DNA from: Bacilli bacterium
Lineage (GTDB): Bacteria; Bacillota_I; Bacilli_A; RF39; UBA660
Length of the DNA: 64,000 nucleotides
Direction: 5' to 3'
NCBI GenBank assembly: GCA_017541325.1
Contig: JAFXZI010000014.1
Coordinates: forward strand, 45,741 to 109,740
Shown: positions 306-62,577 of the stretch, piece after piece
Position numbering within the stretch: position 1 is the first letter of the stretch
Layout: each line of letters begins with the position of its first letter
Notes under the pieces: generated by a model
What the model saw: only the letters and a program-made list of their open reading frames with translations
What the model was told of the DNA's origin: nothing
The model's database searches: none
Program-made: the position numbers and the translations under genes

Positions 306-338
306 AAATACCTCCTACTTTGCTTTTAATATTATTTA

Positions 339-1325: not shown

Positions 1326-1350
1326 CATATCACCCTATAATAATCATATC

Positions 1351-1388
1351 AAAAAATCAAAAAAAGAGATAAATTTTTATTATCTCTT
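1351..1388 (-). terminator. rho-independent terminator after glyQS
   Basis: 9-bp stem 1364-1372/1380-1388 (aagagataa/ttatctctt), followed on the minus strand by a long T-run (plus-strand A-run 1351-1365). Confidence 0.7.
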
Positions 1389-1389
1389 T

Positions 1390-2763: not shown

Positions 2764-2895
2764 AATATCCTCCTAAAAACAAAAACTTCTAGAATTTGTA
2801 AGGACGATTTATCGCGGTTCCACCTTACTTATTCTAGAAGAATCTCTCTTTGTATATAGCTCTGGGATTCCACCCCGTCATCGCTTCAATAACTA
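2764..2895 (-). promoter_or_regulatory. T-box leader (Gly), unusually compact
   Basis: Minus-strand RNA carries the T-box motif AAGGUGGAACCGCG (plus 2813-2826). The canonical antiterminator is GUAAGG / 7-nt bulge UGGAACC / CCUUAC. UGGA matches the U73 discriminator of tRNA-Gly. A 10-bp perfect inverted repeat (2831-2840 / 2786-2795) is followed by a U-run (2775-2785), then AGGAGG. GCGAUGA (GA/K-turn-like) lies near the 5' end. Confidence 0.7.
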
Positions 2896-2928
2896 AAGTT
2901 TAATACTTTTTTTTATTTTTGTAAAGAA

Positions 2929-4983: not shown

Positions 4984-5018
4984 AATATTCACCTACTTTA
5001 ATAATAACATTTTGTATA

Positions 5019-5049
5019 GTAAAAAAGAGATATTTTTATTGTCTCTTTT
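5019..5049 (-). terminator. rho-independent terminator after the YitT-family gene
   Basis: Stem aaagagata/tgtctcttt (5024-5032/5040-5048) with a T-run on the minus strand. Confidence 0.6.
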
Positions 5050-5073
5050 ATCTATTTTACTTAAAAATGTAAA

Positions 5074-5961
5074 TTATTTAGTTATTTTTCTCTTTTTCTT
5101 TAAAGTATTCTTAGCTTTTGTAGATTTAATATGATTTCCAATAATCTCAGATATATCAGAAACAGTTACAAATGCACTATTATCTTCATCATTTATAATT
5201 CGTCTAAGTTCTGGAAGTTCTAGTCTTGTTAAAACTACATAAATAATATCTTTTTTACCACTTATTAATCCAGAACCTTTCATAATAGTACAAGTTCTTC
5301 CAAGTCTTTCATAGATTAGATTAGATATTTTATCAGAATGATCTGTAATTATCATTATTTCTTTAGCTTGAGTTAATCCTTCACTTACAAAGTCTATTAC
5401 TTTAAAAGTAATTACATATGTAAGAAGTGAATATAAAGCTCTATCTATCCCAAAAATAAATCCAGCAGTTCCAAATATAATCATATTAAATAGTAATACT
5501 ATTTGCCCTACTGAAAAAGAAGTATTTTTACTAATTACAATAGCAACTGATTCAGTACCATCTACACATCCACCAGAACGAATTACAAGTCCAACACCAA
5601 TTCCAAGTAAAGCTCCTCCATAAACAAGTCCTAAAAGAGGATCTCCTGTAAGAGCTGGACTAGATGCGAACATTTCAAGTAGTAGTGAAAATAAAGCAAT
5701 ACTATATAATGCTTTTAATAAGAATTGTTTTCCTAAATTTTTATATCCAACATAAATAAATGGAATATTAATAAGAAATACAAGTAAACCTAAATTAATT
5801 TTAGATAGTTTATGAATAATGATAGAAATACCAGCTACTCCTCCATCTAAAATAGAATTAGGTATTAAGAACTCTTGTAGAGCAAAAGCTGCTAATAAAG
5901 AACCTAAAGTCATTCCTAAAAAATCGATAAATAGTTTTATTTCTTTACTTTTGTATTTCAT
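5074..5961 (-). CDS. YitT-family membrane protein (DUF2179-type C-terminal domain)
   Basis: 295 aa. Multiple TM helices followed by a soluble C-terminal domain (MIITDHSDKISNLIYERLGRTCTIMKGSG...). AGGTGA RBS. Confidence 0.75.
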   Translation of the reverse strand: MKYKSKEIKLFIDFLGMTLGSLLAAFALQEFLIPNSILDGGVAGISIIIHKLSKINLGLLVFLINIPFIYVGYKNLGKQFLLKALYSIALFSLLLEMFASSPALTGDPLLGLVYGGALLGIGVGLVIRSGGCVDGTESVAIVISKNTSFSVGQIVLLFNMIIFGTAGFIFGIDRALYSLLTYVITFKVIDFVSEGLTQAKEIMIITDHSDKISNLIYERLGRTCTIMKGSGLISGKKDIIYVVLTRLELPELRRIINDEDNSAFVTVSDISEIIGNHIKSTKAKNTLKKKRKITK

Positions 5962-5998
5962 ACCATCACCTATTATTAATTATATCACAAAATATGCT

Positions 5999-7144
5999 TT
6001 ATTCACTTTTTTCTCTATTAAATTTTTCTTCTACTAATCTTACTGGTAATGATTTATCTTTTAATATTGAATCTATAGATTGATCATTATGAATATTATA
6101 AATAATTTGTGCAATTAATTTTGAACAATCTGCAATATGTAACCATTTAGCTTTTTTATATTCTTCTGGAATATAAGATAAGTTTGTTGTATAAAGTCCA
6201 TTAAATTTACCAGCATTATAGTATTCTTCAAATTTATCTATTCCTTTTGTAAATAATGCATATGTAGTAGCAAGATAAATATATTTAACACCTAATTTAT
6301 TTAATTCTTCTATTATATCGAACATAGAGTTACCAGAAGAAATCATATCATCAGAAACAATTGCTGTATATCCATCTAAATCTTTCATACCACTATAATC
6401 ATGAGCAATAATTGGATATTTACCATCAACTAAATTATTATAATCTCTTTGTTTATAAAAGCTTCCTGCTTCACGAGTAATCTTTTTAGAATTAAATGAG
6501 TTTAAATAGACATTACGTCTACCAACAGCACCATTATCAGGAGCTACAAAGACTATTTTTTTTAATCTATTCATACTTAAATCATTAATCATTTTTTCAA
6601 GTATTTGATTTGTAGGAAAGAAGTTATCAAATTCCATATTATGAATAGCATGTTCTACTCCTTGATCATGTGCATCAAAAGTAATAAAACTCTTTACTCT
6701 ACTCATCATATCTAGTTCATGAAGCATCATACCACAAGCTAGATTTTCTCTTGTATTTCTTCTATGTTGTCTACCTGCATATAAAAGTGGCATAACTACA
6801 TTAATACTTTTAGCATGACAATTACATGCTCCTATACCATCTTTTAATTGTTGCATTAAGTCATTAGGACTCGTATGATTAATAAATCCATGCATTTTGT
6901 ATTCTAAAGAGTAATTACCAATATCTGTTAACATAAACATATCTTTTCCACGAACAGTTTCATTTATTTCTACTTTCAAATGCCCATCTTCAAAATAGTT
7001 TTGTTTAATCGGAATTAAAAAAGTATTTTTTTCTTTATCAAGATTATACATTTCTAATAAATGTTCATCTACTTTTTTCCCTAATTCTTCTGCACTATCA
7101 AATACCATTAGTCTTAAATTAATTGTTTCATTTTGTTTCTTCAT
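5999..7144 (-). CDS. ribose-phosphate diphosphokinase (PRPP synthetase) family protein, divergent long form
   Basis: 381 aa. Prs-like motifs: FEDGHLKVEINETVRGKD, PLLYAGRQHRR (canonical PYxxYARQDRK), TFDAHD, VAPDNGAVGRR, and the PRPP loop IVSDDMISSGNS. AAGGAG RBS. Confidence 0.7.
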   Translation of the reverse strand: MKKQNETINLRLMVFDSAEELGKKVDEHLLEMYNLDKEKNTFLIPIKQNYFEDGHLKVEINETVRGKDMFMLTDIGNYSLEYKMHGFINHTSPNDLMQQLKDGIGACNCHAKSINVVMPLLYAGRQHRRNTRENLACGMMLHELDMMSRVKSFITFDAHDQGVEHAIHNMEFDNFFPTNQILEKMINDLSMNRLKKIVFVAPDNGAVGRRNVYLNSFNSKKITREAGSFYKQRDYNNLVDGKYPIIAHDYSGMKDLDGYTAIVSDDMISSGNSMFDIIEELNKLGVKYIYLATTYALFTKGIDKFEEYYNAGKFNGLYTTNLSYIPEEYKKAKWLHIADCSKLIAQIIYNIHNDQSIDSILKDKSLPVRLVEEKFNREKSE

Positions 7145-7162
7145 CTTCTTCTCCTTTTCTAC

Positions 7163-7193
7163 ATAAAAAAGAGTAAGCTAAAAACTTACTCTT
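7163..7193 (-). terminator. intrinsic terminator inside the leader of the Prs-like gene (about 20 nt before its RBS)
   Basis: 8-bp stem agagtaag/cttactct (7170-7177/7185-7192), followed on the minus strand by TTTTTT and then AAAGGAG-ATG. Confidence 0.65.
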
Positions 7194-7254
7194 TGTTTAT
7201 ATTTAAATTACTACATAAATTGGATTTGTTAAACATATTACCATCTCCATTTTA

Positions 7255-7263
7255 AGTATATCA
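7255..7263 (-). promoter_or_regulatory. putative extended -10 promoter (TGaTATACT) for the Prs-like gene leader
   Basis: The minus strand reads ttatGATATACTtaaaatgg, lying between the flippase terminator and the leader terminator. Confidence 0.4.
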
Positions 7264-7269
7264 TAAGAA

Positions 7270-7297
7270 ATAAAAAAAAGAATATTAACTTATTCTT
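7270..7297 (-). terminator. rho-independent terminator of the flippase gene (overlaps its stop codon)
   Basis: Stem aagaata/tattctt (7278-7284/7291-7297), followed by an 8-nt T-run on the minus strand. Confidence 0.65.
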
Positions 7298-8823
7298 TTT
7301 CTTTTAAATATTTTTCTAATTATACTCTTCATTAAATCTAAAAAGTATTTAAATTCCTCAGTATTATGAAATAGTATAAAGAATATTAAATTAGGAATTA
7401 ATACACACATTAGACACTTAAATATAAATATTAATAATACTGGTCCAGTAAGTAAACTAAGTAAATAATACATTATATAGGCTAAAGCAATAGTAAAGAT
7501 CATTCTTAGAATATATTCCATATAATATTTAGAAACACTTACTTTAAACCCATCTTTATAAAGAATAAATACTTCTATCCAGAAAGGAAGTGTAAAATAA
7601 CTAATTAAAGTTCCCAAAAATACTCCAAGTACTCCTAATTTTATAGATAGAATAATAGAAATACCAATATTAGCTATTGCTTCATAAATAGTTATATATC
7701 TATCTTTATAAAAGATTCCACTAGCTTCTCTAAATGAATTAACTACTTTTCTCATTACTGTAAAATAGAATATTAATACTAAAACTAAGACTATTTCTAT
7801 ATTAAATATATATTCTTTTCCCGCTATGATTTCAATAAAATCATTAAATAATACCATTAAACATATTGAACAGAAAAAAGCAATCCAGAAAGTAGCTAAA
7901 TTAGCTTTGTTAAATAATTCTATTCTTCTTTTTTCATCTTGGTCTACCCAAAAGTTTCCTACTCCAGGAGTAAGAGATGTATATACTTGATTAATTATCA
8001 TATATAGTGCATACATAACTAAGTAATAGTTAGAATAAAAACCAACCGCTTCCAAACTAACAAATTTAGATATTACAAGGTTATCAGTAGAATTAACTGC
8101 TACTCCACCTACTTTTTTTAGCATTAATGCTTTAGTGTTTTTAATTATTTCTTTAGTATCTTTCTTATCTAATTTCTTAACATTCTTTTCTTTTAAGAAT
8201 GGATACATTTTATCAGCTTTTTTAGATAATGCCCAGTTAGAAATAATAGTTAAGATAACTTGAATAATTAAATATCCAAAATAATCATGTGACATAAATA
8301 AATATATTATTTGTAATACATTCATTAATATATAAAAACTATATCTATAAATAGTTTCTATATGTCTATTTTGATCTGCTAAAATAAGATTTCTCTTATA
8401 TGAAAAGAAATAAGATACTGCAGTATTTGTTACAAATAACATATATATTATTTCTATGCCTTCGATATCAGGCATATCTTTAATAAAAAATGATAAAAAT
8501 GGTGTTAAAAGAAATCCGATTGCAAATATAACTACACCTATTACAGAATATACATGTTTAAATAAAAGCATTAAGGATTTTATCTTTTCATTATCATGTT
8601 TTGCAAGTGGTCTATATAAAGAATAAGTTATTGCAGTTCCAACACCAAGTTCAGTTAATGATAAAATCGTTAAGATATTTGAGAACAATCCATTTAATCC
8701 CAAATAAGTACTATTTAATACTCTAATAAAAACAATACGGACAATAAAACTAGCTATAATACCTAATGTTTGTCCGATAAGTGACCAATATACATTTCTA
8801 ACCATATTATTTGTTCTAGACAT
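7285..8823 (-). CDS. MOP-superfamily oligosaccharide/lipid-linked glycan flippase (Wzx/MurJ/SpoVB-like)
   Basis: 512 aa with about 14 predicted TM helices. The N-terminal pattern NVYWSLIGQTLGIIASFIVRIVFIRVL is typical of polysaccharide-biosynthesis flippases. GAGGTG RBS. Confidence 0.7.
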   Translation of the reverse strand: MSRTNNMVRNVYWSLIGQTLGIIASFIVRIVFIRVLNSTYLGLNGLFSNILTILSLTELGVGTAITYSLYRPLAKHDNEKIKSLMLLFKHVYSVIGVVIFAIGFLLTPFLSFFIKDMPDIEGIEIIYMLFVTNTAVSYFFSYKRNLILADQNRHIETIYRYSFYILMNVLQIIYLFMSHDYFGYLIIQVILTIISNWALSKKADKMYPFLKEKNVKKLDKKDTKEIIKNTKALMLKKVGGVAVNSTDNLVISKFVSLEAVGFYSNYYLVMYALYMIINQVYTSLTPGVGNFWVDQDEKRRIELFNKANLATFWIAFFCSICLMVLFNDFIEIIAGKEYIFNIEIVLVLVLIFYFTVMRKVVNSFREASGIFYKDRYITIYEAIANIGISIILSIKLGVLGVFLGTLISYFTLPFWIEVFILYKDGFKVSVSKYYMEYILRMIFTIALAYIMYYLLSLLTGPVLLIFIFKCLMCVLIPNLIFFILFHNTEEFKYFLDLMKSIIRKIFKRKRIS

Positions 8824-8876
8824 ATCGACACCTCAAAGAAATTATATCATTTCCATATATTTTCTACAATTAGCAA

Positions 8877-8909
8877 TAAAAAAATAGACATTTGTTGGAC
8901 AAATGTCTA
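8877..8909 (-). terminator. rho-independent terminator after the acyl-CoA ligase gene
   Basis: Perfect 10-bp stem 8885-8894/8900-8909 (tagacatttg/caaatgtcta) with a T-run on the minus strand. Confidence 0.75.
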
Positions 8910-10628
8910 AATTTCGTTATCTCTTTTCTTTTTTTCTTCTTCTTCAAGTTTTGTATAAGCTATTTTACCTATTAAAGTTTTAGGTAATTTATCTCTAAAT
9001 TCATATTCATGAGGCCATGAATAACGAGCTAAGTTTCTTTCACATAATTCTTTAATTGAATCTAGTATTTTATCATTTTTAGGAACTCCATCTTTTAAAA
9101 CAATAAACGCTTTTGCAACTTGAACTTTATATGGATGAGGTACTCCAATAACACAAGCACGTAATACATCAGGATGTGATTCAATAATACCTTCAATATA
9201 TTGTGGATAAAGATTATATCCAGATGATACTATCATTCTTTTTAATCTATTCTTAAAGTAAACAAATCCTTCATCATCCATTGAACCCATATCTCCGGTA
9301 TGAAGCCAAATCCTTCCTTCTTTATCTGGTTTTAATACTTTATTTGTTTGTTCTGGATCTTTTAAATATCCTTGCATGACAGATGGTCCACAAATAGCTA
9401 TTTCTCCTTCTTTTCCATGCTTTACTTCTCTATTTGTACCATGTTTAACTATTTTATAAAGTGTTCCAGGATAGGGAATTCCAATAGAACCAGCACGATA
9501 ATCATAATATGGAGTTAAGCAACTAGCACCACTACTTTCTGTAAGTCCATATCCTTCTCTTACTTGAATATTTACTGCACCATGTTCATGTAAGAAGTCA
9601 TCTACTTTTTTCTTTAAAGAAATAGATAAAGTATCTCCTCCAGAAATAAGTAATTTTAAGAAAGATAAATCCATTTGATTTATTTCTTCATTTTTTAAGA
9701 ACGCTTCATATAAAGTTGGTACTCCAATAATAATATTGGGTTTATATTTCTTTAATAAATTATCAAATTCTTTAGCATCAAATTGTGGTATTAAAATACT
9801 AGTACCACCAAAATATTGAACTGTATGAATACATACTCCAAGTCCAAAAGCATGGAATATTGGAAGTATTGCTAAGCACTTATCTCCTGCTTCTAATTTT
9901 CCACAAGCATAGAATGATTGAAGAGCACCACTATTAAAATTATAATTTGATAACATAATTCCTTTAGGGTCTCCAGTTGTACCACCACTATATAGTACAA
10001 CAGCAGTTTCATCTCCATCAAAATCATCTTTAATTTCACCCCAATATCTTAAAGATAATCTCATGAATTTTCTCCATTTTATAATACATTTATTATATTC
10101 AATATTAGTTTTTCTTCCTCTAGTTAATTTATAACCTATCTTTAAAAAGAAAGGCATAGAATCAGCTGGACTTACTAAAATAACATTCTTAACTCTAGTC
10201 TCATCTATAATATGATTAATTTTATTAAATGCAGAATCAAGTGCAACTACATAGTTGCTTTCAGATACATTTAAATAATATTTAATTTCATTTTCAGCTG
10301 AAAGTGGATGAATCATATTAGCTACTGCACCTATTTTATTTAATGCATAAAAACTAATAATAGCTTCAGGAGTATTAGGCATACATATGCTTACATAATC
10401 TCCTTTTTGTACTCCTAATCTTTTAAATGATTTAGCACATTTATTTATTTGTTTTAAAAAAGCTTTAAAAGTTTTCTTTTTACCAAAATAATCATAACTA
10501 ATATAATTTAAATGATCTTGAGCAGATTTTTCTAATAATTTATATATAGAACAGTTAGGATAATCAATATTTAAACTTTCATCATCATAAAACTTTTTCC
10601 ATATTCTTTCATCTGTTTGTTTTTTCAA
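8907..10628 (-). CDS. AMP-dependent synthetase/ligase (long-chain fatty-acid--CoA ligase-like)
   Basis: AMP-binding motifs YSGGTTGDPKG, GYGLTE, TGDMG and KNRLKRMIVSSGYNLYP. The start is uncertain: the ORF track begins at TTG 10646, and I prefer TTG 10628 (GGAG 7 nt upstream). Confidence 0.85.
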   Translation of the reverse strand: MKKQTDERIWKKFYDDESLNIDYPNCSIYKLLEKSAQDHLNYISYDYFGKKKTFKAFLKQINKCAKSFKRLGVQKGDYVSICMPNTPEAIISFYALNKIGAVANMIHPLSAENEIKYYLNVSESNYVVALDSAFNKINHIIDETRVKNVILVSPADSMPFFLKIGYKLTRGRKTNIEYNKCIIKWRKFMRLSLRYWGEIKDDFDGDETAVVLYSGGTTGDPKGIMLSNYNFNSGALQSFYACGKLEAGDKCLAILPIFHAFGLGVCIHTVQYFGGTSILIPQFDAKEFDNLLKKYKPNIIIGVPTLYEAFLKNEEINQMDLSFLKLLISGGDTLSISLKKKVDDFLHEHGAVNIQVREGYGLTESSGASCLTPYYDYRAGSIGIPYPGTLYKIVKHGTNREVKHGKEGEIAICGPSVMQGYLKDPEQTNKVLKPDKEGRIWLHTGDMGSMDDEGFVYFKNRLKRMIVSSGYNLYPQYIEGIIESHPDVLRACVIGVPHPYKVQVAKAFIVLKDGVPKNDKILDSIKELCERNLARYSWPHEYEFRDKLPKTLIGKIAYTKLEEEEKKKRDNEI

Positions 10629-10679
10629 AGTAATCACTCCAAACAAAAAAATTCCTTATTCATAATAACATATAATACA

Positions 10680-10709
10680 AAAAAAATAAAGAAAACTTAA
10701 GTTTTCTTT
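10680..10709 (-). terminator. rho-independent terminator after the 410-aa hypothetical gene
   Basis: Stem aaagaaaac/gttttcttt (10688-10696/10701-10709) with a T-run on the minus strand. Confidence 0.7.
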
Positions 10710-11940
10710 ATATTACTTCTATTGATTCTTCATATGATTTCTTTATTAGATAAAGCATTATAGAAGATGCTGATACATCAACTGATGCATGTTTTCCATT
10801 CTTTTTTATATATCGATAGAAAATATTACGATATAAATTAATGCTTTCAGTATCTTCTAATTTTAGACCATATAAAGTCTTCATAGATACTAAAGTTTCA
10901 TGTATAATTCTTTCTTTTTTTATTTTTATATTAAATTTCTTATTAAAATCTTTATAGTCGTTTAATATCTTTTCAGCTTGTTTATATGTAACTCCATATA
11001 TAATTGAAAAGAATGAAACCTTAAATAATAATAATTGATTATCATCATTCATAAGTGGGAAATCCTTTAATCTATTAAAAGTATTATTACCAATCTTTTT
11101 ATATCCCTCTACTCCAAACATCATTGTATTAACTAAATCTTTATCAGCATTATAATCTTTTTCTAAATTATCTAAACTATTTAGAATAGGAGGTACATTA
11201 TCAGTATAATATCTATTAATCATTAAATTAAATGAATAATCAATAAGCATTTTTAATTTTTGTTTATCAGTATCTCTTTTCTTTTTATAAATATATTCTT
11301 TATAATAATCCCACAATAATCTTCGGTAATTATTATAATTTAACAAAGAAAGTACAACATCAAAGAATTCATTATCACTTGAATAGTTTTCTAAAACATA
11401 ATTATCCATTAAAGAAACCATTTCTATAAATTTATCATTTCTTGATCTAAGTAGAGCTTTTACTACTTTACCTTTATCATCACTTTTAAAGACATTTAAT
11501 AGTAAATTTCTATATGATTCAACACTAAACTTATCAATTACATCTGCTGATAAAAAGTCAGATACTCTAAATTTATTAGACATAATAAGTTCATCGAATA
11601 ATTTTTCTCTTGTTAAAAAGATATAATCAATATATTCTTTTTCAGTATCATATAATATAAATAAATCTTTTAAATTACCTAAGTCATTTTTTTCTAAACT
11701 CATATAAATATATCTATTATTTCTAAAAGATGAAGAAGTTACTATTTGATAAAACTTACTATATTGATTCATATTTTTAATAGTTAGTATTCTTTTTACT
11801 ATAGAACCTGCAATAGATATAGAATATTCATCTGGGTAGTTATTTAAAGCTAAAAGATCTTGATTCATGATGGAAATAAATTCAGTATCACTTAATGATA
11901 ATGTTTCATCAATAGTTAAAGATAAAACTTTCTTCTTCAT
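10708..11940 (-). CDS. hypothetical cytoplasmic protein (helical, Asn/Lys/Tyr-rich)
   Basis: Long intact ORF. ATG 11940 lies after GGGTGA; the ORF-track start 11952 is a GTG. No motif recognised. Confidence 0.55.
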   Translation of the reverse strand: MKKKVLSLTIDETLSLSDTEFISIMNQDLLALNNYPDEYSISIAGSIVKRILTIKNMNQYSKFYQIVTSSSFRNNRYIYMSLEKNDLGNLKDLFILYDTEKEYIDYIFLTREKLFDELIMSNKFRVSDFLSADVIDKFSVESYRNLLLNVFKSDDKGKVVKALLRSRNDKFIEMVSLMDNYVLENYSSDNEFFDVVLSLLNYNNYRRLLWDYYKEYIYKKKRDTDKQKLKMLIDYSFNLMINRYYTDNVPPILNSLDNLEKDYNADKDLVNTMMFGVEGYKKIGNNTFNRLKDFPLMNDDNQLLLFKVSFFSIIYGVTYKQAEKILNDYKDFNKKFNIKIKKERIIHETLVSMKTLYGLKLEDTESINLYRNIFYRYIKKNGKHASVDVSASSIMLYLIKKSYEESIEVI

Positions 11941-11981: not shown

Positions 11982-12010
11982 AAAAATAAAAAAGAGTATT
12001 TCTACTCTTT
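11982..12010 (-). terminator. rho-independent terminator after yebC (end of the murF..tad..yebC gene string)
   Basis: Stem aagagta/tactctt (11992-11998/12003-12009) with a T-run on the minus strand. Confidence 0.7.
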
Positions 12011-12034: not shown

Positions 12035-12754
12035 TTAAGCATCTAAATTATGATATACATTTTGTACATCATCAATCTCTTCTAAGGCATCAGCTAAAGC
12101 TAATACTTTTTCAGTAGTTTCTTCATCAAGTGTTACAGTATTTTGGGCAATATATGTTATTTCACTTGTTATAAATTCTTCTACTCCAATACCTTCAAGT
12201 GCAGTTTTAACAGCAATAAAGTCTTCTGGAGAAGTATATATTTCATATCCATCATCAGTAGAAACTATATCTTGTGCTCCAGCATCAAGTGCAGTCATCA
12301 TAACTTCATCTTCATCATATTTTGAATCAATCATAATAAAACCTTTACGATCAAACATATATGAAACAGATCCATCTGTACCAAGGTTTCCTCCACGTTT
12401 TGTAAAAGTAGATCTTACAAGCATTGCAGTACGATTACGATTATCTGTTAGGCAATCAACCATGAATGCCACTCCTGATGGACCATATCCCTCATATCTA
12501 ATAGATTCATAGTTTTCACCTTCGTTAGACTTAACTGCTTTATCAATTGCTTTTTGAATATTATCTTTAGGCATATTATTACTTTTAGCTTTTTCAACTA
12601 CTAGTCTTAAATTAGGATTAGTTGCTGGATCTCCATTTGTTCCTTTAGCAGCTACATATAATTCTTTAGCTATCTTTTGGAATATTTTTCCTCTTTCAGC
12701 GTCTAATAATCCTTTTTTTCTGTGAATAGTTGCCCATTTAGAATGTCCACTCAT
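12035..12754 (-). CDS. yebC: YebC/PmpR-family DNA-binding regulator / translation factor
   Basis: 239 aa. The hallmark N-terminus MSGHSKWATIHRKKGLLDAERGKIF is present. It starts only 10 nt after the tadC-like stop. Confidence 0.93.
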   Translation of the reverse strand: MSGHSKWATIHRKKGLLDAERGKIFQKIAKELYVAAKGTNGDPATNPNLRLVVEKAKSNNMPKDNIQKAIDKAVKSNEGENYESIRYEGYGPSGVAFMVDCLTDNRNRTAMLVRSTFTKRGGNLGTDGSVSYMFDRKGFIMIDSKYDEDEVMMTALDAGAQDIVSTDDGYEIYTSPEDFIAVKTALEGIGVEEFITSEITYIAQNTVTLDEETTEKVLALADALEEIDDVQNVYHNLDA

Positions 12755-12764
12755 ATTTTCCTCC

Positions 12765-13460
12765 TTAACTTAGTTTTAAATATTCTATTATTACCGGTGT
12801 AAGAATTAGTAATAATATTAATGGTATATAAAATAATACCGATATAACAGAAACCTTTACAGGTATCTTGTTAATGATTGCTTTTATTTTTAATACTTGT
12901 CTTTCTCTTATATAATCAATTTGAGTATATATATCTTCAATAATATCATTACCTAAAGTATTAGATTCAGATATATGAAGAATAATACTATTTACTTCAT
13001 CTGATGGAATTCTCTCTCTTAATGAATCAAGTGCTTCGTTAAGACCTTTTCCATATTTCATTTCTTCTAAAGTAATTTTAAATTCATTAGATAAATCATT
13101 ATCTACATTTATAGTTGCAACTTCTATAGAATCAACTATGCTTTTTCCTGATTCTAAGGAAAGTGCCATTACTTCAAAGAATTCCATAGCATTATACTCT
13201 AAATTATCTTTTCTTTTATTTATTGGAATCTCAATTAAATAATAAGTAATTAATTTAAAATAAATAAAAGTAATAATCGGACTAAGTAAATATCCCCAAT
13301 CAAGCATATATAATAACATGAAAAATATAATTAGAGAAGAAAAAGTTCTAAAGTTAAGAAAGAATATACTACTCATATTACTTTTTCCCATTTTTAATTT
13401 CTTTTCAAATTCTTCTATTTTTTTTCGAGGATAAATATAATACCAAAATTTATTTTTCAT
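12765..13460 (-). CDS. tadC: Tad/type II secretion F-family inner-membrane platform protein (TadC-like)
   Basis: 231 aa. T2SSF-type soluble domain (FFEVMALSLESGKSIVDSIE...LNEALDSLRERIP) flanked by TM helices. 4-nt overlap with the upstream gene. Confidence 0.75.
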   Translation of the reverse strand: MKNKFWYYIYPRKKIEEFEKKLKMGKSNMSSIFFLNFRTFSSLIIFFMLLYMLDWGYLLSPIITFIYFKLITYYLIEIPINKRKDNLEYNAMEFFEVMALSLESGKSIVDSIEVATINVDNDLSNEFKITLEEMKYGKGLNEALDSLRERIPSDEVNSIILHISESNTLGNDIIEDIYTQIDYIRERQVLKIKAIINKIPVKVSVISVLFYIPLILLLILTPVIIEYLKLS

Positions 13461-14446
13461 AATTTCACCTCGATGTATACTATTTTTCTAATTATTATTA
13501 TATAGAATACATATAACATTATTATTAACACAAATGCTAAAAATCCTATGGTTGTAGTAAATAAAGTTACAAAGTATGCTGGATTAAGTAATAATAAGAA
13601 TAAAACTAATATCGGTGGCATTGAAACTAAAATACGATAAACGAATCTAGCTTGAGAAGAATTACTTTTAAGTTCTTCTCTTAATTTTTTTCGTGCTAAT
13701 GCATTTTTTTCAATAGAATCAAATACAGATACAATGTTTCCACCAGTTTTACTTAATACACTAATTGAACTAGTTAAGTATGTAGCTTCAACACTTTTTA
13801 CTCTTTTACTAAATCTTTTAAAAGCTTCTTCTATATCTAATCCAAATTTAATATCTTCACTTATACGTTTAAACTCTATAGATATAGGTCCTTGCATCTC
13901 TTTAGCAACTAAGTCTATAGCTTGAATAATACTTTTTCCTGATTTAAAAGCATTATTCATTATTACTATTGCTTCTGAGATATCATTATCTAGTCTATTA
14001 TCTTCATATTTTCCAAGTACATATAAATAAATATCATATAAGAAGAATCCTGCTAAGAAAGATATTAGAATATTTACGATAGTTAGAACATTTTCTTTAG
14101 CAAATGAATTACATATAAGTAATAATAAACATAATAATCCTATAAATATTTTTCTACTAATGTAATTCATATTTGTAAGAAGTTTTTTACTACCTGAATA
14201 CTTTATATATTTTTTACTATAATCATCAAATACATGAGTTTTTATTAGTCTCCTAGATAGTTTTTCTTCTATATTTCTATAACTACTTACTAAAACATCA
14301 ACAATAGAAAGAGTATCATTATCATAATCTACAGTATAATTATTAAATCTTTTAGTTAATTTATAACTGTTATATGATTTTATAAATAACCATACCAATA
14401 ATAGAATTAAACATATTAACAATAATACTAATAAATATAATTCCAT
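13457..14446 (-). CDS. tadB: Tad/type II secretion F-family inner-membrane platform protein (TadB-like)
   Basis: 329 aa. T2SSF domain (MNNAFKSGKSIIQAIDLVAKEMQGPISIEFKRISEDIKFGLDIEEAF) with N- and C-terminal TM helices. Confidence 0.75.
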   Translation of the reverse strand: MELYLLVLLLICLILLLVWLFIKSYNSYKLTKRFNNYTVDYDNDTLSIVDVLVSSYRNIEEKLSRRLIKTHVFDDYSKKYIKYSGSKKLLTNMNYISRKIFIGLLCLLLLICNSFAKENVLTIVNILISFLAGFFLYDIYLYVLGKYEDNRLDNDISEAIVIMNNAFKSGKSIIQAIDLVAKEMQGPISIEFKRISEDIKFGLDIEEAFKRFSKRVKSVEATYLTSSISVLSKTGGNIVSVFDSIEKNALARKKLREELKSNSSQARFVYRILVSMPPILVLFLLLLNPAYFVTLFTTTIGFLAFVLIIMLYVFYIIIIRKIVYIEVKL

Positions 14447-14459
14447 ATTTTACTCCTTT

Positions 14460-15812
14460 CTATTTTTTCTTAGTTGTAGTCTTTTTAGTAATTTTATTTT
14501 TTGCTTTAGATTCAAACATATCTAAAACAATTCCTTTATTTTTAATTTTTTCATATATTTTTGGTACATTTTCATAAAGAATAAATTCTCCGTTTACTTC
14601 TTTATTTTCAGTTATACCATGCTTTAAGAATGCAAATATATCTTCAATAATAATATTTTCTCCATCAAATCCAGTTATTTCTGAAATATTAGTAACTTTT
14701 CTTTTACCATCACTTAATCTTTCAACCGATATTACTATATCAATAGCACTATCTATATACCCTCTAATAGCTTTAATAGGCAATTCTACTTCGCTCATAA
14801 GAATCATTGTTTCAAGTCTATTTAATGCATCTTTTACTCCGTTAGCATGTAGAGTGGTTAATGATCCATCATGACCTGTATTCATCGCTTGTAGCATATC
14901 AAACGCTTCTTTACCACGAACTTCACCAACTATTATTCTATCAGGACGCATACGAAGAGAGTTTCTTACTAAATCTCTTATTGTTATTTCTCCTTCTTTT
15001 TCATAGTTTTCAGTTTTAGTCTCAAGTGAAATAACATGTTCTTGTTTAAGACGAAGTTCAACTGCATCTTCAATAGTAATTATTCTCTCATCATTAGGAA
15101 TAGATCCTGAAAGAACATTTAAAAGTGTTGTTTTACCAGAACCAGTTCCTCCACATATTAAGATATTTAATCTTGCTTTAATACAAGCATCTAAGAAAGT
15201 AGCCATATATGGAGTTAATGTACCATTTCCTATTAAACTATCCATATCTTCAACATCATCTCTAAATTTACGAATAGTTACAACTGGCCCCTTTACTGAT
15301 AATGGTGGAATAATAGCATTTATTCTAGATCCATCAGGAAGACGAGAATCTACCATTGGGTTACTACTATCAATAGTTCTACCTAGTGGTTGAATGATAC
15401 GACTTACTGTTCTTATTATATGTTCATCATTAATAAATGAAACATCATAATCACGAGATATTATACCATCTACTTCAATATATATTTCATCAGGAGAATT
15501 AATCATTATCTCTGTTACATTTTTATCTTTTAATAATTCTGTAATAGGTCCAAATCCATTTAATTCATTATTAATAAGATTTTTTAAATAGTCTCTTTGT
15601 TCATTTAAAAGATCATATTCAACTGCAATTCTATCTATTACTTCTTCTATATTTTCTTCTTCTATTTCATGAGAATCAATTAATTCTTGAATAATCTTAA
15701 TACGTAATTTATCAAGTTCTTCTTTATTCTCAAAAATATCATAATCAGTATTAGTATAAGTATTGGAACTATTATCTTCTAAATTGAACTCTTCCATCCA
15801 ACTATTATTCAT
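14460..15812 (-). CDS. tadA: CpaF/TadA-family secretion ATPase
   Basis: 450 aa. Walker [13 protein letters not shown], Walker [13 protein letters not shown], and His box [12 protein letters not shown]. Confidence 0.9.
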
Positions 15813-16563
15813 AATCTTCCTCCTCTACTAAACTACGTATATTATTACTAAATGTTTCATATTCTTTTTTAGCTTCACCAGTAAATATTTCATTAAAATT
15901 AATTATTTTTTCATCCATAACTAATTCATTATAATTATTTATAAATAATTTATTACTTATAGAATAATCTAATTTTTTAATTACTGTTTTTATATCATAA
16001 ATATCATAATTATCTTTAATATCTCGATATGATTTATTTAGTAGTACAACAACATTATCTACTTTCATATTTTTAGTTATAGAAATGAAACTCTTATTAA
16101 TTTCTAAATTATAAGCATCATCTCCAACTATATCTATAATCTTCATACTTTTATCAAAAAGAAGCATATTAAGTGGGCTTAAAGTATTATTTGTATCAAT
16201 TACTATATATTCATATGAATACATTAATAAATCTAAAACTTGAGACAATGCTTTTACATCTATTTTAGATGATAATCTCATATCTATAGGAGCAGGAATA
16301 AAAGATAAGTTATCTCTTACATAATAAGTATATGGAGTAGAACTTTCATATTTTTTATTTCTTAAATCATCACACATATTATAAATAGTCTTTTTAGGTT
16401 TAATACCTAGTGCAAAAGCAAGATTTCCTCCATATAAATCTAAATCTATTAAAAGAGTACTTTTATTTTTACTTAAAATATCTGCAATCATCATTGAAAC
16501 AGTAGTTTTACCTACTCCACCTTTCATAGATGTTACAGTTATTATCTTAGCTTTATTCTTCAT
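15805..16563 (-). CDS. ParA/MinD-type ATPase (CpaE/TadZ-like pilus localisation protein)
   Basis: 252 aa. Deviant Walker A SMKGGVGKTTVS. 8-nt overlap with the ATPase gene. Confidence 0.75.
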   Translation of the reverse strand: MKNKAKIITVTSMKGGVGKTTVSMMIADILSKNKSTLLIDLDLYGGNLAFALGIKPKKTIYNMCDDLRNKKYESSTPYTYYVRDNLSFIPAPIDMRLSSKIDVKALSQVLDLLMYSYEYIVIDTNNTLSPLNMLLFDKSMKIIDIVGDDAYNLEINKSFISITKNMKVDNVVVLLNKSYRDIKDNYDIYDIKTVIKKLDYSISNKLFINNYNELVMDEKIINFNEIFTGEAKKEYETFSNNIRSLVEEEDYE

Positions 16564-17341
16564 CTAACCAACTCCTATTTTTATTATAATTATTTATTAT
16601 ATTATTTTCTGTTAATAACATATCATATGATTTTACATATTTAATATTCTTAGTATTAATAATTAAATCTCCACTTAAATTATCTATTTCTTTTATAAAG
16701 TCTCCATTTAAATATAGACGTGCTTTGTTAGTACCAACTAAATCTATAATATTTCTTTCATTAACTGGACCAATTAAAATATCATTTAAATACAGACTAT
16801 TATTACTTATAAAGAACCTACTATTACCAATCATAAATTGAGTATCATCTAAATTAGTAAAACCAATTTCTAAAGAATAATTTTCTAAATCAAAATTCTT
16901 TATATTAATTACACCATTAATTATGTTGTAGCCTCTACCATCTAAACTATTTACTTCATTATTATTTATTTCAAAATACATTAAAATATTACTTGTATAT
17001 TTTACTTCTTTTTCTGATGTAACAGTATATTTATCCATACCTATAATTTTTCCAAATATAGGTTTTATATCTTTATGCGTTTTTATATAAATAGATCTGT
17101 TTTCTATTTTTACTTCATCTATAACGATATCTTCATCATTTAAACTATATAATAATTTAATATCTTCATTAGAAACATCAATCTTTTTATTTAAACTAGT
17201 TAAAATATCTTTATTAACGTTATCTAAATAATTTTTATTATAAAACATCAAAGATGAATCTATAATAAAAGCTAAAGCAAGTGTAATAATAGGTAGTAAA
17301 AGTAAGAATAATACCAGTACTTGTCCTTTATTATTCTTCAT
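16553..17341 (-). CDS. TadG/TadE-like pseudopilin-type protein
   Basis: 262 aa. N-terminus MKNNKGQVLVLFLLLLPIITLALAFIIDSSLMF resembles the Flp-pilus TadE/G-like N-terminal segment. Overlaps both neighbouring genes by 11 nt. Confidence 0.6.
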   Translation of the reverse strand: MKNNKGQVLVLFLLLLPIITLALAFIIDSSLMFYNKNYLDNVNKDILTSLNKKIDVSNEDIKLLYSLNDEDIVIDEVKIENRSIYIKTHKDIKPIFGKIIGMDKYTVTSEKEVKYTSNILMYFEINNNEVNSLDGRGYNIINGVINIKNFDLENYSLEIGFTNLDDTQFMIGNSRFFISNNSLYLNDILIGPVNERNIIDLVGTNKARLYLNGDFIKEIDNLSGDLIINTKNIKYVKSYDMLLTENNIINNYNKNRSWLDEE

Positions 17342-17684
17342 TATTAATAGTCCTTTCTACTTTAACACTATATGGATCTTTTATTATTCTATTAATTCCT
17401 GGAGTCATTAAATCAACATCTTTAGTAATAATAATTGTTGTAATAGAACCCTTATCAGTAATATCAACATTAATATTTTTGTATCCAATACTAGCTAGAT
17501 ATGACTCTATTTCATCATTATCACTATTCTTTTGATATAGTGAAATAACTTCATTACTAACTCCTTCTAATTTACTATTTTCAAGTATTATTCTTCCTAA
17601 ATCTAAAAATGAAAAGAGAAGTAATATTATTACTGGTAATATAAGAACAAATTCAATAAGTGCTTGACCCTTATTATTCTTCAT
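17331..17684 (-). CDS. TadE-like pseudopilin / candidate pilin subunit
   Basis: 117 aa. MKNNKG|QALIEFVLILPVIILL has Gly-1/Glu+5 and the TadE-type EFxLxxP motif. GGAAGGTG RBS. Confidence 0.7.
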   Translation of the reverse strand: MKNNKGQALIEFVLILPVIILLLFSFLDLGRIILENSKLEGVSNEVISLYQKNSDNDEIESYLASIGYKNINVDITDKGSITTIIITKDVDLMTPGINRIIKDPYSVKVERTINNEE

Positions 17685-17709
17685 AATAACACCTTCCCTA
17701 TCTTACATA

Positions 17710-17718
17710 ATTATATCA
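17710..17718 (-). promoter_or_regulatory. putative extended -10 promoter (TGaTATAAT) ahead of the tad genes
   Basis: The minus strand reads tttgtTTGATATAATtatg, about 25 nt upstream of the TadE-like start. Confidence 0.45.
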
Positions 17719-17746
17719 AACAAATAAAAAAAAGAGAATAACTACT

Positions 17747-18898
17747 TTAAATATCATGAATATTTATTGTAGTATCCTCTTCTGTATCTTTTCTAAATAT
17801 ATCTTCTTTTCTTAACCTATAATTACTAATTATTAACTGCTCTATATTTCTATCTAAAGTTATATAATCTTCTCTATGAAGGGTATTTATTACAAGTCCC
17901 CATATATTAGCTTCTTTAATTGGTTTTGTTTTTAAAGAAAGACTATATATTCCTAAAAGATCCATATTAAATAATTCTTCTAAAGTTCTTTTATCAATAT
18001 CTTTTATTTTTCTTAAAACAAAATCATAACTAGAAGATACAAAATGTTCAAATGCTCCTAGTAATTTATCTTTACCACCAATAGTATTTAATAACTGATT
18101 AATAGTTAAAGCAAAGAAATTATAATTTATCTTTCTAAAAGCTTCATTTTTATATAAAGATTTAGGTAATGAATCACTAGCTGGATCAAAGAAATAAAAT
18201 CCATCTGCTTCATATTTAGAATCTTCTATATAAATTACAGAAACATATTCAGTATCATCTCTTTTAATTGGAACAATATAAACAGGAATATTTAATCTAG
18301 ATAATATTTCTTTAAATAGATTATTAAATCCTAAAGAATTAGTTTTTCTAGTTCTAACTATATCTGGTAATCTATCACTACTAGTTCTATCTAAATCAAG
18401 TAATTTAACAAAATCATATACTTCCTTTACCTTTTCTAGAGGTGACATTTTCTTATCAATAGATAATATTACTATATTAATATATTCCTCCATCATTCTA
18501 TAATTTGGAAGAGTTGTTATTTGATAAGTACCATCTTTATAACTATAAGAAAATTTCCAAGAATCAGGATTTTCATAAGGAAAAGATAATAATTCCTTAA
18601 CTTCATCCGGATTATTATCTCTTAAAACTAATTTTTCGACACTACTATCAGTAATCATAGGAGATAATTCTAAAACATGTTTAATTGTTTCTATATCTCT
18701 AACTTGAACCTGATCTCTAAAAGTAACTTGCGCTACTGTATTTATAGAAAATAGCATTTTCTTTACTTCTTCTAAAGTGTCAGCAGTTATAGGGGTGCTG
18801 AAGTCTAGATTGGTAATTCCAATGTATTTTAGTAGTTCTTCATCAATTGTCCCTAAATCGGATTCGAAACCATTTTCCAACTCAAAACACCCTCTCAT
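17747..18898 (-). CDS. hypothetical protein, possibly a degenerate transglutaminase-like fold
   Basis: 383 aa. The segment RKTNSLGFNNLFKEILSRLNIPVYIVPIK...GFYFFDPASD has the layout of a transglutaminase-like core, but with Ser in place of the nucleophile Cys and no obvious His. No SD; it starts 10 nt after the ddl stop. Confidence 0.5.
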   Translation of the reverse strand: MRGCFELENGFESDLGTIDEELLKYIGITNLDFSTPITADTLEEVKKMLFSINTVAQVTFRDQVQVRDIETIKHVLELSPMITDSSVEKLVLRDNNPDEVKELLSFPYENPDSWKFSYSYKDGTYQITTLPNYRMMEEYINIVILSIDKKMSPLEKVKEVYDFVKLLDLDRTSSDRLPDIVRTRKTNSLGFNNLFKEILSRLNIPVYIVPIKRDDTEYVSVIYIEDSKYEADGFYFFDPASDSLPKSLYKNEAFRKINYNFFALTINQLLNTIGGKDKLLGAFEHFVSSSYDFVLRKIKDIDKRTLEELFNMDLLGIYSLSLKTKPIKEANIWGLVINTLHREDYITLDRNIEQLIISNYRLRKEDIFRKDTEEDTTINIHDI

Positions 18899-20111: not shown

Positions 20112-21752
20112 TTATTTTTCGTTATATGTATCAGGTAAATCATTTTCAAATAATGCATATATTTTTTTCTTAGTTTTCATACTATTAAGTATCATATAAG
20201 CTTTAGTAACATCATTTATTATTTCAATATCTGATTCTTTAAAACCTTTTTCTTTTAATCCTTCAAGTATAGGTTTTGTTTGTTTTTCTCCAACTAGTAT
20301 TACATGATCTGCAACTTCTGCTATATCCTTACCAAATTCTTTATTATAGTATTCTTCTTTATCTCCTAATTCTATCATTCCAGGAGTAACAACTACTTTA
20401 TATCCATCCATCATATTAAGGACTTCTAAAGCTCTTTTTGATCCTTCTGGATTAGAATTATATGCATCATCTATAAATACAAATTTTGGAAAATTCTTCA
20501 TACTTAAACGATGTTCAATTGGTTTTAATCTACCAACTGCTCTTTGTAAATGTTCTACATTGATTCCAAGTTCATAACCTAATGCTAAACAAGAAATAAT
20601 ATTATAAACATTATGCTTTCCAAGAAGTCTTGTTTTAAACTCATATTTCTTTTTATCACCTTTAAATTCTACTGTAAATGTTGTTCCTTCATGATTAACT
20701 TTAATCTTACTAGCACGTACATCAACATCATCTTTAGTATCTATTCCTACCCAAAGTAGTTTACAATGATTTTTATTTTTAAATTTATAATTCTTTTGTT
20801 TTTCATCATCTCTATTTAAAACTCCAACTCCATCTTCTGGTAGATATTCAATTAATTCCATCTTTCCTGATTGAATATTTTCTTCACTACCAAATGTTTC
20901 TAAATGAGCTGTACCAATCTTTGTAATTATTCCATATTTAGGATTTACTAGTTTACATAGTCCATTTATTTCACCTTTAACATAAGCACCCATTTCTGCA
21001 ATAAATACTTCATCAAATTTAGATAATGAATTATTTACTGTTATCATAAGTCCATTAAAAGTATTTAGACTTTTTGGAGTAGCTAGTACATTATATTTTT
21101 CACTTAAAATCTCATTTAAAAAGTTCTTAGTACTAGTTTTTCCATAACTTCCAGTTATTCCAACTACTTTTAAATTTTCCATACTAGCTAGTTTTCTTTT
21201 AGCTTTTTTTTCAAAATGTCTATATACAAAATACTCTATTGGTTTATTAATTAAATAAGCAATATATACTACATAATAATTTAGTACTGACATAACAGAT
21301 AATAATATTATAGAATCACATAAACGTGGAAAATCTATTTTAGTATCTACTAAGATAAATTGTACTGTAATACCTAAAGCACAAACAATAAGATGTAATA
21401 ATATTAAAGTAGCTATAAGTCTTTTAATTCTTGCAGTATATACTAATGGTTTCTTATTTTTTTCCTTCTTTTTCTTTTTTTCTTTTAATAGACAATATCC
21501 ATATAAAATAATAATTAAAGCAAGGAAATAGTAAGAAATTAAAGTATCAACACATAAAGCAAATAAAGAAACGAAGATGATTCCATATATATCTATGTTG
21601 GTAAACATTTCTTTTTTATTCTTCCATACCCATTTTAAGTATCTATTGTTCTCATTATATAGATTTTGCTGAAGCATATGTAATGCCCTTCTAGTTTTTA
21701 ACATTGAATAGATAAAAACTATTGCCATTGTCACATAAATTCTAATTAACAT
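20112..21752 (-). CDS. murF: MurF-type Mur ligase (UDP-MurNAc-tripeptide--D-Ala-D-Ala ligase) with an N-terminal polytopic membrane domain
   Basis: 546 aa. Residues 1-~185 form four or more hydrophobic helices. These are followed by the P-loop GITGSYGKTSTK and the MurF C-terminal motif IDDAYNSNPEGSKRAL...PGMIELG. AGGAGG RBS at the first ATG; ddl is adjacent. Confidence 0.8.
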   Translation of the reverse strand: MLIRIYVTMAIVFIYSMLKTRRALHMLQQNLYNENNRYLKWVWKNKKEMFTNIDIYGIIFVSLFALCVDTLISYYFLALIIILYGYCLLKEKKKKKEKNKKPLVYTARIKRLIATLILLHLIVCALGITVQFILVDTKIDFPRLCDSIILLSVMSVLNYYVVYIAYLINKPIEYFVYRHFEKKAKRKLASMENLKVVGITGSYGKTSTKNFLNEILSEKYNVLATPKSLNTFNGLMITVNNSLSKFDEVFIAEMGAYVKGEINGLCKLVNPKYGIITKIGTAHLETFGSEENIQSGKMELIEYLPEDGVGVLNRDDEKQKNYKFKNKNHCKLLWVGIDTKDDVDVRASKIKVNHEGTTFTVEFKGDKKKYEFKTRLLGKHNVYNIISCLALGYELGINVEHLQRAVGRLKPIEHRLSMKNFPKFVFIDDAYNSNPEGSKRALEVLNMMDGYKVVVTPGMIELGDKEEYYNKEFGKDIAEVADHVILVGEKQTKPILEGLKEKGFKESDIEIINDVTKAYMILNSMKTKKKIYALFENDLPDTYNEK

Positions 21753-57609: not shown

Positions 57610-57641
57610 TATAAAAAAAGAAAAAGACTTTACAAGTCTTA
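57610..57641 (-). terminator. rho-independent terminator after the TPR gene (end of the MoxR/VWA operon)
   Basis: Stem aagact/agtctt (57624-57629/57635-57640) followed by a long T-rich run on the minus strand. Confidence 0.65.
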
Positions 57642-62516: not shown

Positions 62517-62536
62517 ATACACTTCACCTATTATAA

Positions 62537-62571: not shown

Positions 62572-62577
62572 TATTTA

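Follow-up and report, generated by a model that had tools for sequence, protein, structure and literature searches.

A pilin-free Tad operon as the probable machinery half of a split Tad/Flp pilus system in uncultured low-GC gut Bacillota

Introduction

Where is the pilin of a Tad pilus operon that has neither a flp gene nor a prepilin peptidase gene of its own? The question is raised by a 64,000-nucleotide stretch of DNA (hereafter, the window) from a Bacilli bacterium (assembly GCA_017541325.1, contig JAFXZI010000014.1, positions 45,741 to 109,740 of the forward strand). Its GC content is about 26% overall (22-31% in bins of 2 kb), and nearly all genes lie on the minus strand. Six co-oriented open reading frames (ORFs) on this strand, at positions 12765-17684, encode proteins of 117, 262, 252, 450, 329 and 231 aa that make up a Tad assembly machinery. 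A first-pass annotation, made from the letters of the window, recognised this operon between murF-ddl and yebC and offered three ways out of the missing pilin: the small TadE-like protein is itself the major subunit, the pilin and the peptidase are encoded elsewhere, or the machinery assembles two orphan modular pilins of the same window. Our results indicate that this is a Tad/Flp system of known type and that the operon is not pilin-less; instead, the locus is split. Very likely, the operon encodes the machinery of a Tad/Flp (type IVc) pilus system that is divided between two sites and belongs to a monoderm, low-GC (25%) lineage of uncultured gut Bacillota.

The missing pilin gene

Within the window, no Flp was found either by a scan for the G-x4-E[YF] motif followed by a hydrophobic tail or by a hidden Markov model (HMM) built from the Flp of 26 relatives and run against all six frames. 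Both scans matched just the N-termini of the 117-aa TadE-like protein (TadE-117) and of the 262-aa protein. Hence, the earlier statement that there is no Flp pilin stands for the operon and for the window, but it fails for the genome as a whole.

An exact protein look-up led to the ENA scaffold XIEF21-1_SAMN15830041_METAG-scaffold_174 (169.6 kb), which equals the window at 99.995% over 20 kb; the window species is present on approximately 20 further contigs. For the last ORF of the window (63166-63978), the look-up gave no record. Coordinates 3203-93660 of this scaffold, about 90 kb, were examined, and gene and Pfam labels were read in four stretches of it (L081, L087, L089 and L093). Stretch L087 corresponds to window positions 1-11328 at 99.98% (L088 does so at 100%) and extends 9.66 kb past the window edge. 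It is in this extension, about 7.2 kb beyond window position 1 and about 19.9 kb downstream of tadC, that a canonical flp gene is found (Table 1). Its 63-aa product, MRNNKKGQALVEYVLIIALISVIVIGIINTFGGYIKDSITKTSCSISDKEYVEGKNPGDGYCK, begins with MRNNKKG/QALVEYVLIIALISV and thus carries the class III signal KKG/QALVEY (the slash marks the predicted cleavage site). Against the HMM of the relatives' Flp, this protein (Flp-63) scores 120 bits (E 1e-39). An identical protein is encoded on 21-24 contigs and bears the NCBI name "Flp family type IVb pilin [Bacilli bacterium]".

The same gene occupies a telling position in related genomes. We compared 61 loci (L001-L061) retrieved by a TadA search of species-representative genomes (58-70% identity), all of them metagenome-assembled genomes labelled as uncultured Bacilli, Tenericutes, Mollicutes or Erysipelotrichaceae, including Clostridium sp. 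CAG:710, Firmicutes bacterium CAG:822 and Candidatus Coprosoma; we take this lineage to be the GTDB order RF39. Sequence upstream of tadE was long enough to be evaluated in 53 loci, and a flp ORF of 63-80 aa lies directly upstream of tadE in 26 of these. The relatives' Flp share the N-terminus K-G/QALVEY, a hydrophobic helix after it and a conserved C-terminal loop, C-x11-12-G-x-K-P-G-E-G-x-C. The two Cys of this C-terminal extension are invariant in Flp-63 and in the 26 relatives, unlike the minimal Flp of model systems. A database search listed 939 proteins related to this Flp family.

Flp also has a steady companion. In 21 related loci, a divergent gene of about 100 aa encoding a DUF192 protein precedes flp, and such a gene adjoins the displaced flp of the window genome. 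Orphan flp genes were seen in two further loci: as a DUF192-flp pair beside lon in L096 and between the rpoZ and M16 peptidase genes in L097. Thus, in the window genome and in L096, the pair remains together even when flp has been displaced from the tad cassette. We consider DUF192-flp upstream of tadE to be the ancestral arrangement, from which the pair was separated from the machinery genes here. DUF192 genes stand next to Tad genes in Bulleidia and Helcococcus as well (PMC12786226), and the persistence of the pairing provides a testable lead to the function of DUF192.

The machinery operon

The identities that the first-pass annotation had assigned to the six genes (TadE, TadG/TadE-like, ParA/CpaE, CpaF/TadA, TadB and TadC) were borne out by Pfam, NCBIfam and solved-structure matches (Table 1), the second being assigned, on a weak match, as TadE/TadF-like. 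TadE-117 opens with the class III signal peptide MKNNKG/QALIEFVLILP, with Glu at +5, and the 262-aa protein occupies the second TadE-like slot, with a pilin-like N-terminal helix in its structural model. The 252-aa ATPase shows partial NCBIfam matches to MinD-like and CpaE_hom_Actino and has no N-terminal receiver-like domain of the kind found in proteobacterial TadZ. For the 450-aa motor, the closest solved structures are those of Caulobacter CpaF (8rjf, 8rkd and 9e24; E 1e-97 for 8rjf), while the matches to FlaI (E 1e-38) and VirB11 (E 1e-36) are much weaker. As in Tad systems generally, the platform consists of two separate single-T2SSF proteins, TadB and TadC, encoded by adjacent and overlapping genes. 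The type IVa/Com components PilB/ComGA, PilC/ComGB and PilD/ComC were found neither in the window nor in those parts of the scaffold that were examined, the ATPase of the cassette being of the CpaF type. Among the window proteins that were scanned and the genes called in the four scaffold stretches, none showed domains of the secretin RcpA/CpaC or of RcpC/CpaB. This is to be expected and does not disqualify the system, because the host is monoderm.

Four of the five junctions overlap, by 11, 11, 8 (tadZ-tadA) and 4 nt. Translational coupling with overlaps of 4-11 nt, as claimed for the whole operon, therefore applies to these four, whereas tadA and tadB are parted by a 13-nt gap, the sole non-overlapping junction. 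We confirmed that yebC starts 10 nt 3' of tadC. Given this short gap and the lack of any signal within it, yebC is probably co-transcribed as the operon's final gene; it is a housekeeping passenger rather than a Tad component.

Table 1. Positions of the genes and signal-like elements discussed (window coordinates unless stretch L087 is named)
Feature	Position	Strand	Match or basis
flp, 63 aa	L087 18481-18672	as tad operon	Flp_Fap 33.1 bits, cut-off 32.2
DUF192 gene	L087 18098-18391	opposite to flp, divergent	32.6 bits, cut-off 27
TadE-like minor (pseudo)pilin, 117 aa	17331-17684	-	Pfam TadE PF07811 37.5 bits, cut-off 22.9
TadF-like modular minor pilin, 262 aa (candidate)	16553-17341	-	weak TadE/Tad N-terminal match
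TadZ/CpaE-like ParA/MinD-family ATPase, 252 aa	15805-16563	-	Pfam AAA_31 58.3 bits, CbiA, ParA
TadA/CpaF secretion ATPase (motor), 450 aa	14460-15812	-	Pfam T2SSE 217 bits
TadB platform protein, 329 aa	13457-14446	-	one T2SSF domain, Pfam 54.4 bits
TadC platform protein, 231 aa	12765-13460	-	one T2SSF domain, Pfam 44.7 bits
yebC	12035-12754	-	NCBIfam YebC/PmpR 337 bits
383-aa ORF (377 aa in public gene calls)	17747-18898	-	follows ddl
Giant leucine-rich repeat (LRR) pilin, 687 aa	2929-4992	as tad operon and flp	N_methyl motif and BspA-type LRRs
Giant immunoglobulin-like (Ig) repeat pilin, 1048 aa	33797-36943		GFTLIE after a basic leader of ~65 residues; Cys-rich tail
Extended -10 promoter-like element, TGATATAAT	17710-17718	-	read from sequence, conserved across loci
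Leader/ribosome-binding site, AGGGAAGG, conserved	17692-17699	-	upstream of tadE ATG at 17684
Terminator-like hairpin with T tract	17722-17783	-	overlaps stop of 383-aa gene, immediately upstream of tadE
AT-rich terminator-like hairpin, AAAGAGTA-GAAA-TACTCTTT, with T tract	11982-12010	-	after yebC; sequence and fold

Promoter-like and terminator-like signals

A scanner for consensus -35/-10 pairs returned fewer promoter-like sites than were found in shuffled sequences and overlooked AT-rich terminators, so that we assessed signals by their folding and by their conservation among loci instead. The hairpin that stands immediately before the operon is more stable than any other in the region: its energy is -19.8 kcal/mol (z -4.56, with 0 of 200 shuffles as stable), and it is followed by UUUUUUUUAUUU. 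In the congener L091, a shorter hairpin with T8 is found at the matching place upstream of tadE. Such a structure contradicts the earlier view that the only clear terminator follows yebC. The hairpin after yebC is real, albeit weak (it has 2 G-C pairs only and was not reported by the scanner), and likely marks the end of the tadE-yebC transcript, judging by its sequence and fold.

The 62-nt gap before tadE holds a GGGAAGG ribosome-binding site and an extended -10 element, which the scanner overlooked because of its weak -35. A TGnTATAAT/TGnTATACT sequence, with a leader of the purine-rich ATAGG(G/A) type (mostly ATAATAGGGG) some 10 nt further on, is conserved upstream of tadE; the -10 element keeps the same distance both in loci where flp is adjacent (L008, L013, L014 and L019) and in loci where it is not (L091, L098, L001 and L002). 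In the window genome and in relatives, flp is equipped with an element of its own, TTGACA-17 nt-TAAAAT/TAAACT/TATACT, and with a hairpin followed by a T tract; with its perfect TTGACA, the flp element is closer to the consensus than that of tadE. Hence, flp and the tad machinery appear to be independent transcription units, which would explain how flp has been displaced, repeatedly, without loss of function.

Conservation and integrity of the cassette

Wherever the contig covers it, the cassette of the relatives consists of TadE (~115 aa), a second TadE-like protein (~125 aa), a CpaE-like protein, TadA, TadB and TadC, with one member not called in a few of the 61 loci. An orthologue of tadE was called in 58, the other three having a contig end or a disrupting pilin insertion in its place. 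The position of the tadZ-like gene is conserved in all 61 relatives, and TadB comes in a form of either 330 or ~500 aa. Decay in related strains, which the first-pass annotation had named as grounds for dropping its proposal, is thus not what we see. The retention of the intact cassette amid housekeeping genes in at least 61 species-level relatives rather suggests a core trait of the lineage, plausibly gut attachment.

Within the window species, none of the six ORFs is disrupted in the window or in stretches L081, L083 and L086, and the cassette is identical across 21 contigs. Variants in L082, L084 and L085 are described below. Since L083 shows zero substitutions in the tad genes, polymorphism within the species is uninformative with regard to selection.

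The 262-aa modular minor pilin

The second protein of the operon deserves separate comment. Its N-terminus, MKNNKG/QVLVLF, has no Glu at +5 and agrees with the N-terminus encoded by the second TadE-like gene in every relative, where Glu is likewise missing from +5. In that slot, the relatives encode a short form of 116-136 aa; the window protein is longer by approximately 140 residues, and long-form homologues number only five (52-96% identity). An AlphaFold2 (AF2) model built on a six-sequence alignment (predicted local distance difference test score, pLDDT, of 83) displays three parts: a long helix at the N-terminus, a small pilin-like part of alpha/beta type and a beta jelly-roll at residues ~119-239. 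In a Foldseek comparison with the PDB, this model matched the lectin-like HCN subdomain of clostridial neurotoxins and the GH43 arabinanase AbnA of Geobacillus (5ho0), while PilC (7oa7, E 8e-7), a modular minor pilin from Streptococcus sanguinis, came third. Tip subunits without Glu5 exist in other type IV filaments. By analogy with these, and as far as the model goes, the 262-aa protein may be a modular minor pilin that acts as an adhesin at the tip; a lectin-like module on a Glu5-less TadF-like subunit would make it a concrete candidate for such a role.

This gene also varies within the species. In L085 (4430-5221, corresponding to window 16553-17341), the 262-aa pilin differs in 10 alignment columns and carries a 3-nt indel that makes it 263 aa long; the neighbouring tadE, 383-aa gene and ddl are identical, and murF has one nonsynonymous change. 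Such a local hot spot of diversity is consistent with a surface-exposed subunit.

Proposed model and rival explanations

Bringing these observations together, we propose the following scenario. The genes for TadE-117, the TadF-like 262-aa protein, TadZ/CpaE, TadA/CpaF, TadB and TadC would be transcribed together with yebC as one unit, from the element at 17710-17718 to the hairpin at 11982-12010, while the major pilin, Flp-63, would come from a separate monocistronic gene with its own promoter and terminator, beside the divergent DUF192 gene. A peptidase of the A24 family, encoded by an unlinked gene, would cut after the conserved Gly of Flp, of TadE-117 and of the 262-aa protein. A TadA hexamer and the TadB/TadC platform would then polymerise Flp, with TadZ positioning the machine and the two TadE-like proteins priming the filament. 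Finally, the Glu5-less 262-aa subunit might cap the tip, where its lectin-like jelly-roll would be displayed and serve attachment, glycans being the probable target. Processing and assembly, like tip placement and adhesion, are all assigned here by analogy with known systems.

Several observations weigh against this scenario. The A24 motif GxGDxK is absent from every frame of the window, in line with the first-pass remark that the locus has no TadV/FppA peptidase, and no prepilin peptidase turned up when the search was extended to the ~90 kb of scaffold (by the Pfam labels of its four stretches) and to +-10 kb around the cassettes of the 61 relatives (by GxGDxK in all ORFs). Of the suggestion that pilin and peptidase are encoded elsewhere, the pilin part was right, with the 63-aa gene now located; for the peptidase, we infer a gene elsewhere in the genome, and since none was found, the processing of Flp and the other pilins rests on the same inference. 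In Bifidobacterium, tadV consistently lies outside the Tad clusters, and the locus is likewise split in two clusters (PMC13091076). As for the 262-aa protein, its TadE match (18.8 bits) stays below the Pfam cut-off, and the lectin-like assignment comes from one AF2 model of 6 sequences, with whole-chain Foldseek template modelling (TM) scores of 0.33-0.39. Lastly, tadA ends prematurely in L082 and L084, with a stop at codon 44 or immediately before it. The differences concerned are at L082 7583-7639 and L084 7588 (window 15635-15691). Two of the three in L082 fall within 10 nt of the place where the L084 contig ends, and that in L084 is 12 nt from its own contig end. These stops are more likely assembly artefacts than true strain variants, and we discount them as evidence of decay.

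The stops bear on one of the rival explanations, namely that the rearrangement which took flp away left the operon stranded, as a decaying or silent remnant. The parting of flp from the cassette could be read in the same way. However, the six ORFs and their coupled junctions are intact in the window, L081, L083 and L086, the tad genes of L083 are free of substitutions, the promoter-like element is conserved, and the split arrangement has been kept with intact genes both in the congener L091, whose 262-aa protein shares only ~52% identity, and in the family-level relative L098. Together with the nearness of the L084 difference, and of two of the three in L082, to the end point of the L084 contig, this makes decay, in our opinion, most improbable. 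We attach equally little credence to the notion that TadE-117 is itself the major subunit of a truly Flp-less system. True, it is encoded by the first gene of the operon, it has a perfect G/QALIEF class III signal with Glu5, and neither the operon nor the window contains flp. Yet a canonical flp lies ~20 kb away on the same scaffold, under a promoter-like element closer to consensus than that of tadE, and 26 relatives carry flp alongside both the TadE-117 orthologue and the second TadE-like gene. Because flp co-occurs with both TadE-like genes in these relatives, TadE-117 fills a minor-pilin slot; promoting it to the major subunit is unnecessary and is contradicted by the 26 loci.

The remaining alternative is that scattered N_methyl modular pilins are assembled or mounted by the Tad machine, in addition to Flp or in its place, either as exchangeable tip or minor subunits of a Flp filament or as filaments of their own. 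Two giant pilins of this type are encoded in the window (Table 1), the gene of the 687-aa one having the tad operon on one side and flp on the other, all on the same strand, and the Tad and giant pilins share the N-terminal pattern G/xxLxE. Variable Tad pilus tips have a precedent in the Kil system of Myxococcus (PMC12075869). Among the relatives, a GFTLIE-type pilin gene is found inside the cassette of L007 (in the order flp, 151-aa pilin, tadE) and L059 (flp, 1074-aa LRR pilin, tadE), between tadA and tadB in L034, and abutting the cassette in L041, L060, L024, L004 and L020; moreover, in L096, two giant N_methyl pilins lie 5 kb from the orphan flp, and no PilB/PilC-type genes were seen in the window or in ~90 kb of scaffold. 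So the earlier suggestion that this ATPase and platform serve the orphan modular pilins gains something from eight relatives with pilins in or next to the cassette, but the enrichment is only ~2.5-fold: 11 such genes were counted within 239 kb close to the cassette and 7 within 375 kb farther out, that is, 0.46 per 10 kb against 0.19 per 10 kb at 2.5-10 kb. Such pilin genes are common across these genomes, with 2 in the 64-kb window alone, and N_methyl pilins with Phe at +1 are substrates of PilD-type peptidases and of PilB/PilC or ComGA/GB machines. Indeed, a PilB/GspE-type ATPase (TIGR02533, 488 bits) is encoded within 10 kb of the cassette in L037, L043, L053 and L061, in two of which (L037 and L053) it has a pilin gene of the N_methyl type beside or near it, and our view of the window genome covers ~90 kb. 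On balance, we regard assembly of the giant pilins by the Tad machine as unlikely, although less so than the two readings above. It is tempting to imagine a tiny Flp fibre that displays changeable giant adhesins (LRR, Ig-repeat, up to >1000 aa), with a type IVc motor making use of type IVa-style pilins; the odds are well against it. If it were true, the lectin-tipped TadF-like subunit, specific to the genus, would represent one fixed instance of that principle.

Neighbouring genes

Upstream of the operon, murF, ddl and the 383-aa ORF follow one another with gaps of 12, 10 and 62 nt, the last before tadE, in good agreement with the 10-60 nt reported before. For murF, the top NCBIfam match is to murF but, with 238 bits, falls short of the 288.6 cut-off; its product (window 20112-21752) has an N-terminal extension of ~190 residues with several hydrophobic (membrane) segments. 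The ddl match reaches 308 bits. The 383-aa protein belongs to a lineage-specific family of ~60 hypothetical proteins, its sole distant matches being proteins with Transglut_core (PF01841). We rejected it as a Tad component: the gene follows ddl in the window, L001, L091 and L098, thus accompanying ddl, while variable inserts part it from tadE in L001 and L098.

The first-pass annotation regarded the linkage of a Tad locus to peptidoglycan-precursor genes as something out of the ordinary. Since a terminator and a conserved promoter-like element precede tadE, we consider murF, ddl and the 383-aa gene to be neighbours and not operon partners. Besides, the order murF-ddl-383-aa gene upstream with yebC downstream was found, apart from the window, only in L001, in the congener L091 and in L098, a family-level relative, and a meaningful linkage is not borne out. 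In relatives, the upstream flank is obg or mutS, and the gene after tadC is murC in 25 of the 61 (TIGR01082, 364.6 bits, cut-off 335.1), yebC in 7, and ruvA or others in the rest. The recurrent closeness to Mur ligase genes, with murC after tadC or murF-ddl before the operon, looks like the housekeeping gene order of small genomes.

Other neighbours were recorded in passing. Secreted proteins of ~170 aa with a GYAAF(S/Q)T motif after a signal anchor adjoin the cassette in L001, L035, L045, L048, L052 and L053; they have no Pfam match, stand in three tandem copies in L001 (6569-8381), and have an N-terminus that strikes us as reminiscent of TasA/SipW-type proteins. As an alternative fibre subunit they were discarded, lacking a class III signal as well as any homologue close to the window operon. 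Window positions 57639-63123 contain a Bat-like operon (TPR, two vWA proteins, DUF58, MoxR ATPase and LemA). Just past the right window edge (L089 1-8052), the scaffold extension holds WXG100/DUF4176 genes only, a cluster suggesting a type VII secretion substrate region.

Comparison with known systems

Overall, the present finding chiefly removes an anomaly, in that the operon is neither pilin-less nor functionally tied to peptidoglycan-precursor genes. Herein, two small leads emerge, namely the coupling of DUF192 with flp and the putatively lectin-tipped TadF-like subunit, and both can be set against systems already described.

In Bifidobacterium breve, the Tad pilus reportedly has a role in gut colonisation. 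The Bifidobacterium system, such as tad2003 of B. breve UCC2003, resembles ours in that the host is monoderm, no secretin is present, and the genes can be split into two clusters with tadV outside (PMC13091076). Here, however, the split sets flp alone against tadE-tadF-tadZABC, the order begins with tadE, Flp has a C-terminal Cys...Cys loop, TadZ is devoid of the N-terminal domain, flp has a DUF192 partner, and the TadF-like subunit bears a putative lectin-like module. Bulleidia extructa, of the Erysipelotrichales, is close in other respects: it is a low-GC member of the Bacillota with a reduced genome, whose Tad pilins have no globular domain, whose TadE/TadF/TadG carry added C-terminal domains, and whose DUF192 gene is consistently next to the Tad genes (PMC12786226). 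Its genes, in contrast, form a single 13-gene operon starting with tadV and two pilin genes, whereas in the window genome the DUF192-flp pair has been displaced and tadV would be unlinked.

With the Cpa system of Caulobacter crescentus and the Tad system of Aggregatibacter, the window locus shares the CpaF/TadA motor (8rjf, see above), the division of the platform into TadB and TadC, the ParA-like CpaE/TadZ, the Flp pilin, and TadE/TadF pseudopilins with G/xxxxE[YF]. The diderm RcpA/CpaC secretin, RcpB, RcpC/CpaB, TadD and TadG of those systems were not seen in the window. PilC of S. sanguinis (PDB 7oa7) resembles the model of the 262-aa protein in fusing a pilin module to a C-terminal lectin-type jelly-roll; unlike the latter, it belongs to a type IVa pilus (PilB/PilC/PilD, N_methyl signal), and at 10% identity there is no sequence similarity. 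Here, the predicted jelly-roll is mounted on a Tad-type, Glu5-less TadE/TadF-like subunit. Finally, the Tad-like cluster of the TANB77 gut clade likewise comes from uncultured gut Bacillota with reduced genomes and combines conserved machinery with non-canonical pilin-like genes (PMC11680825). That cluster includes CpaB, a fused TadB-TadC, a TadA of 640 aa and six pilin-like proteins of 143-237 aa, whereas the system described here has a canonical small Flp.

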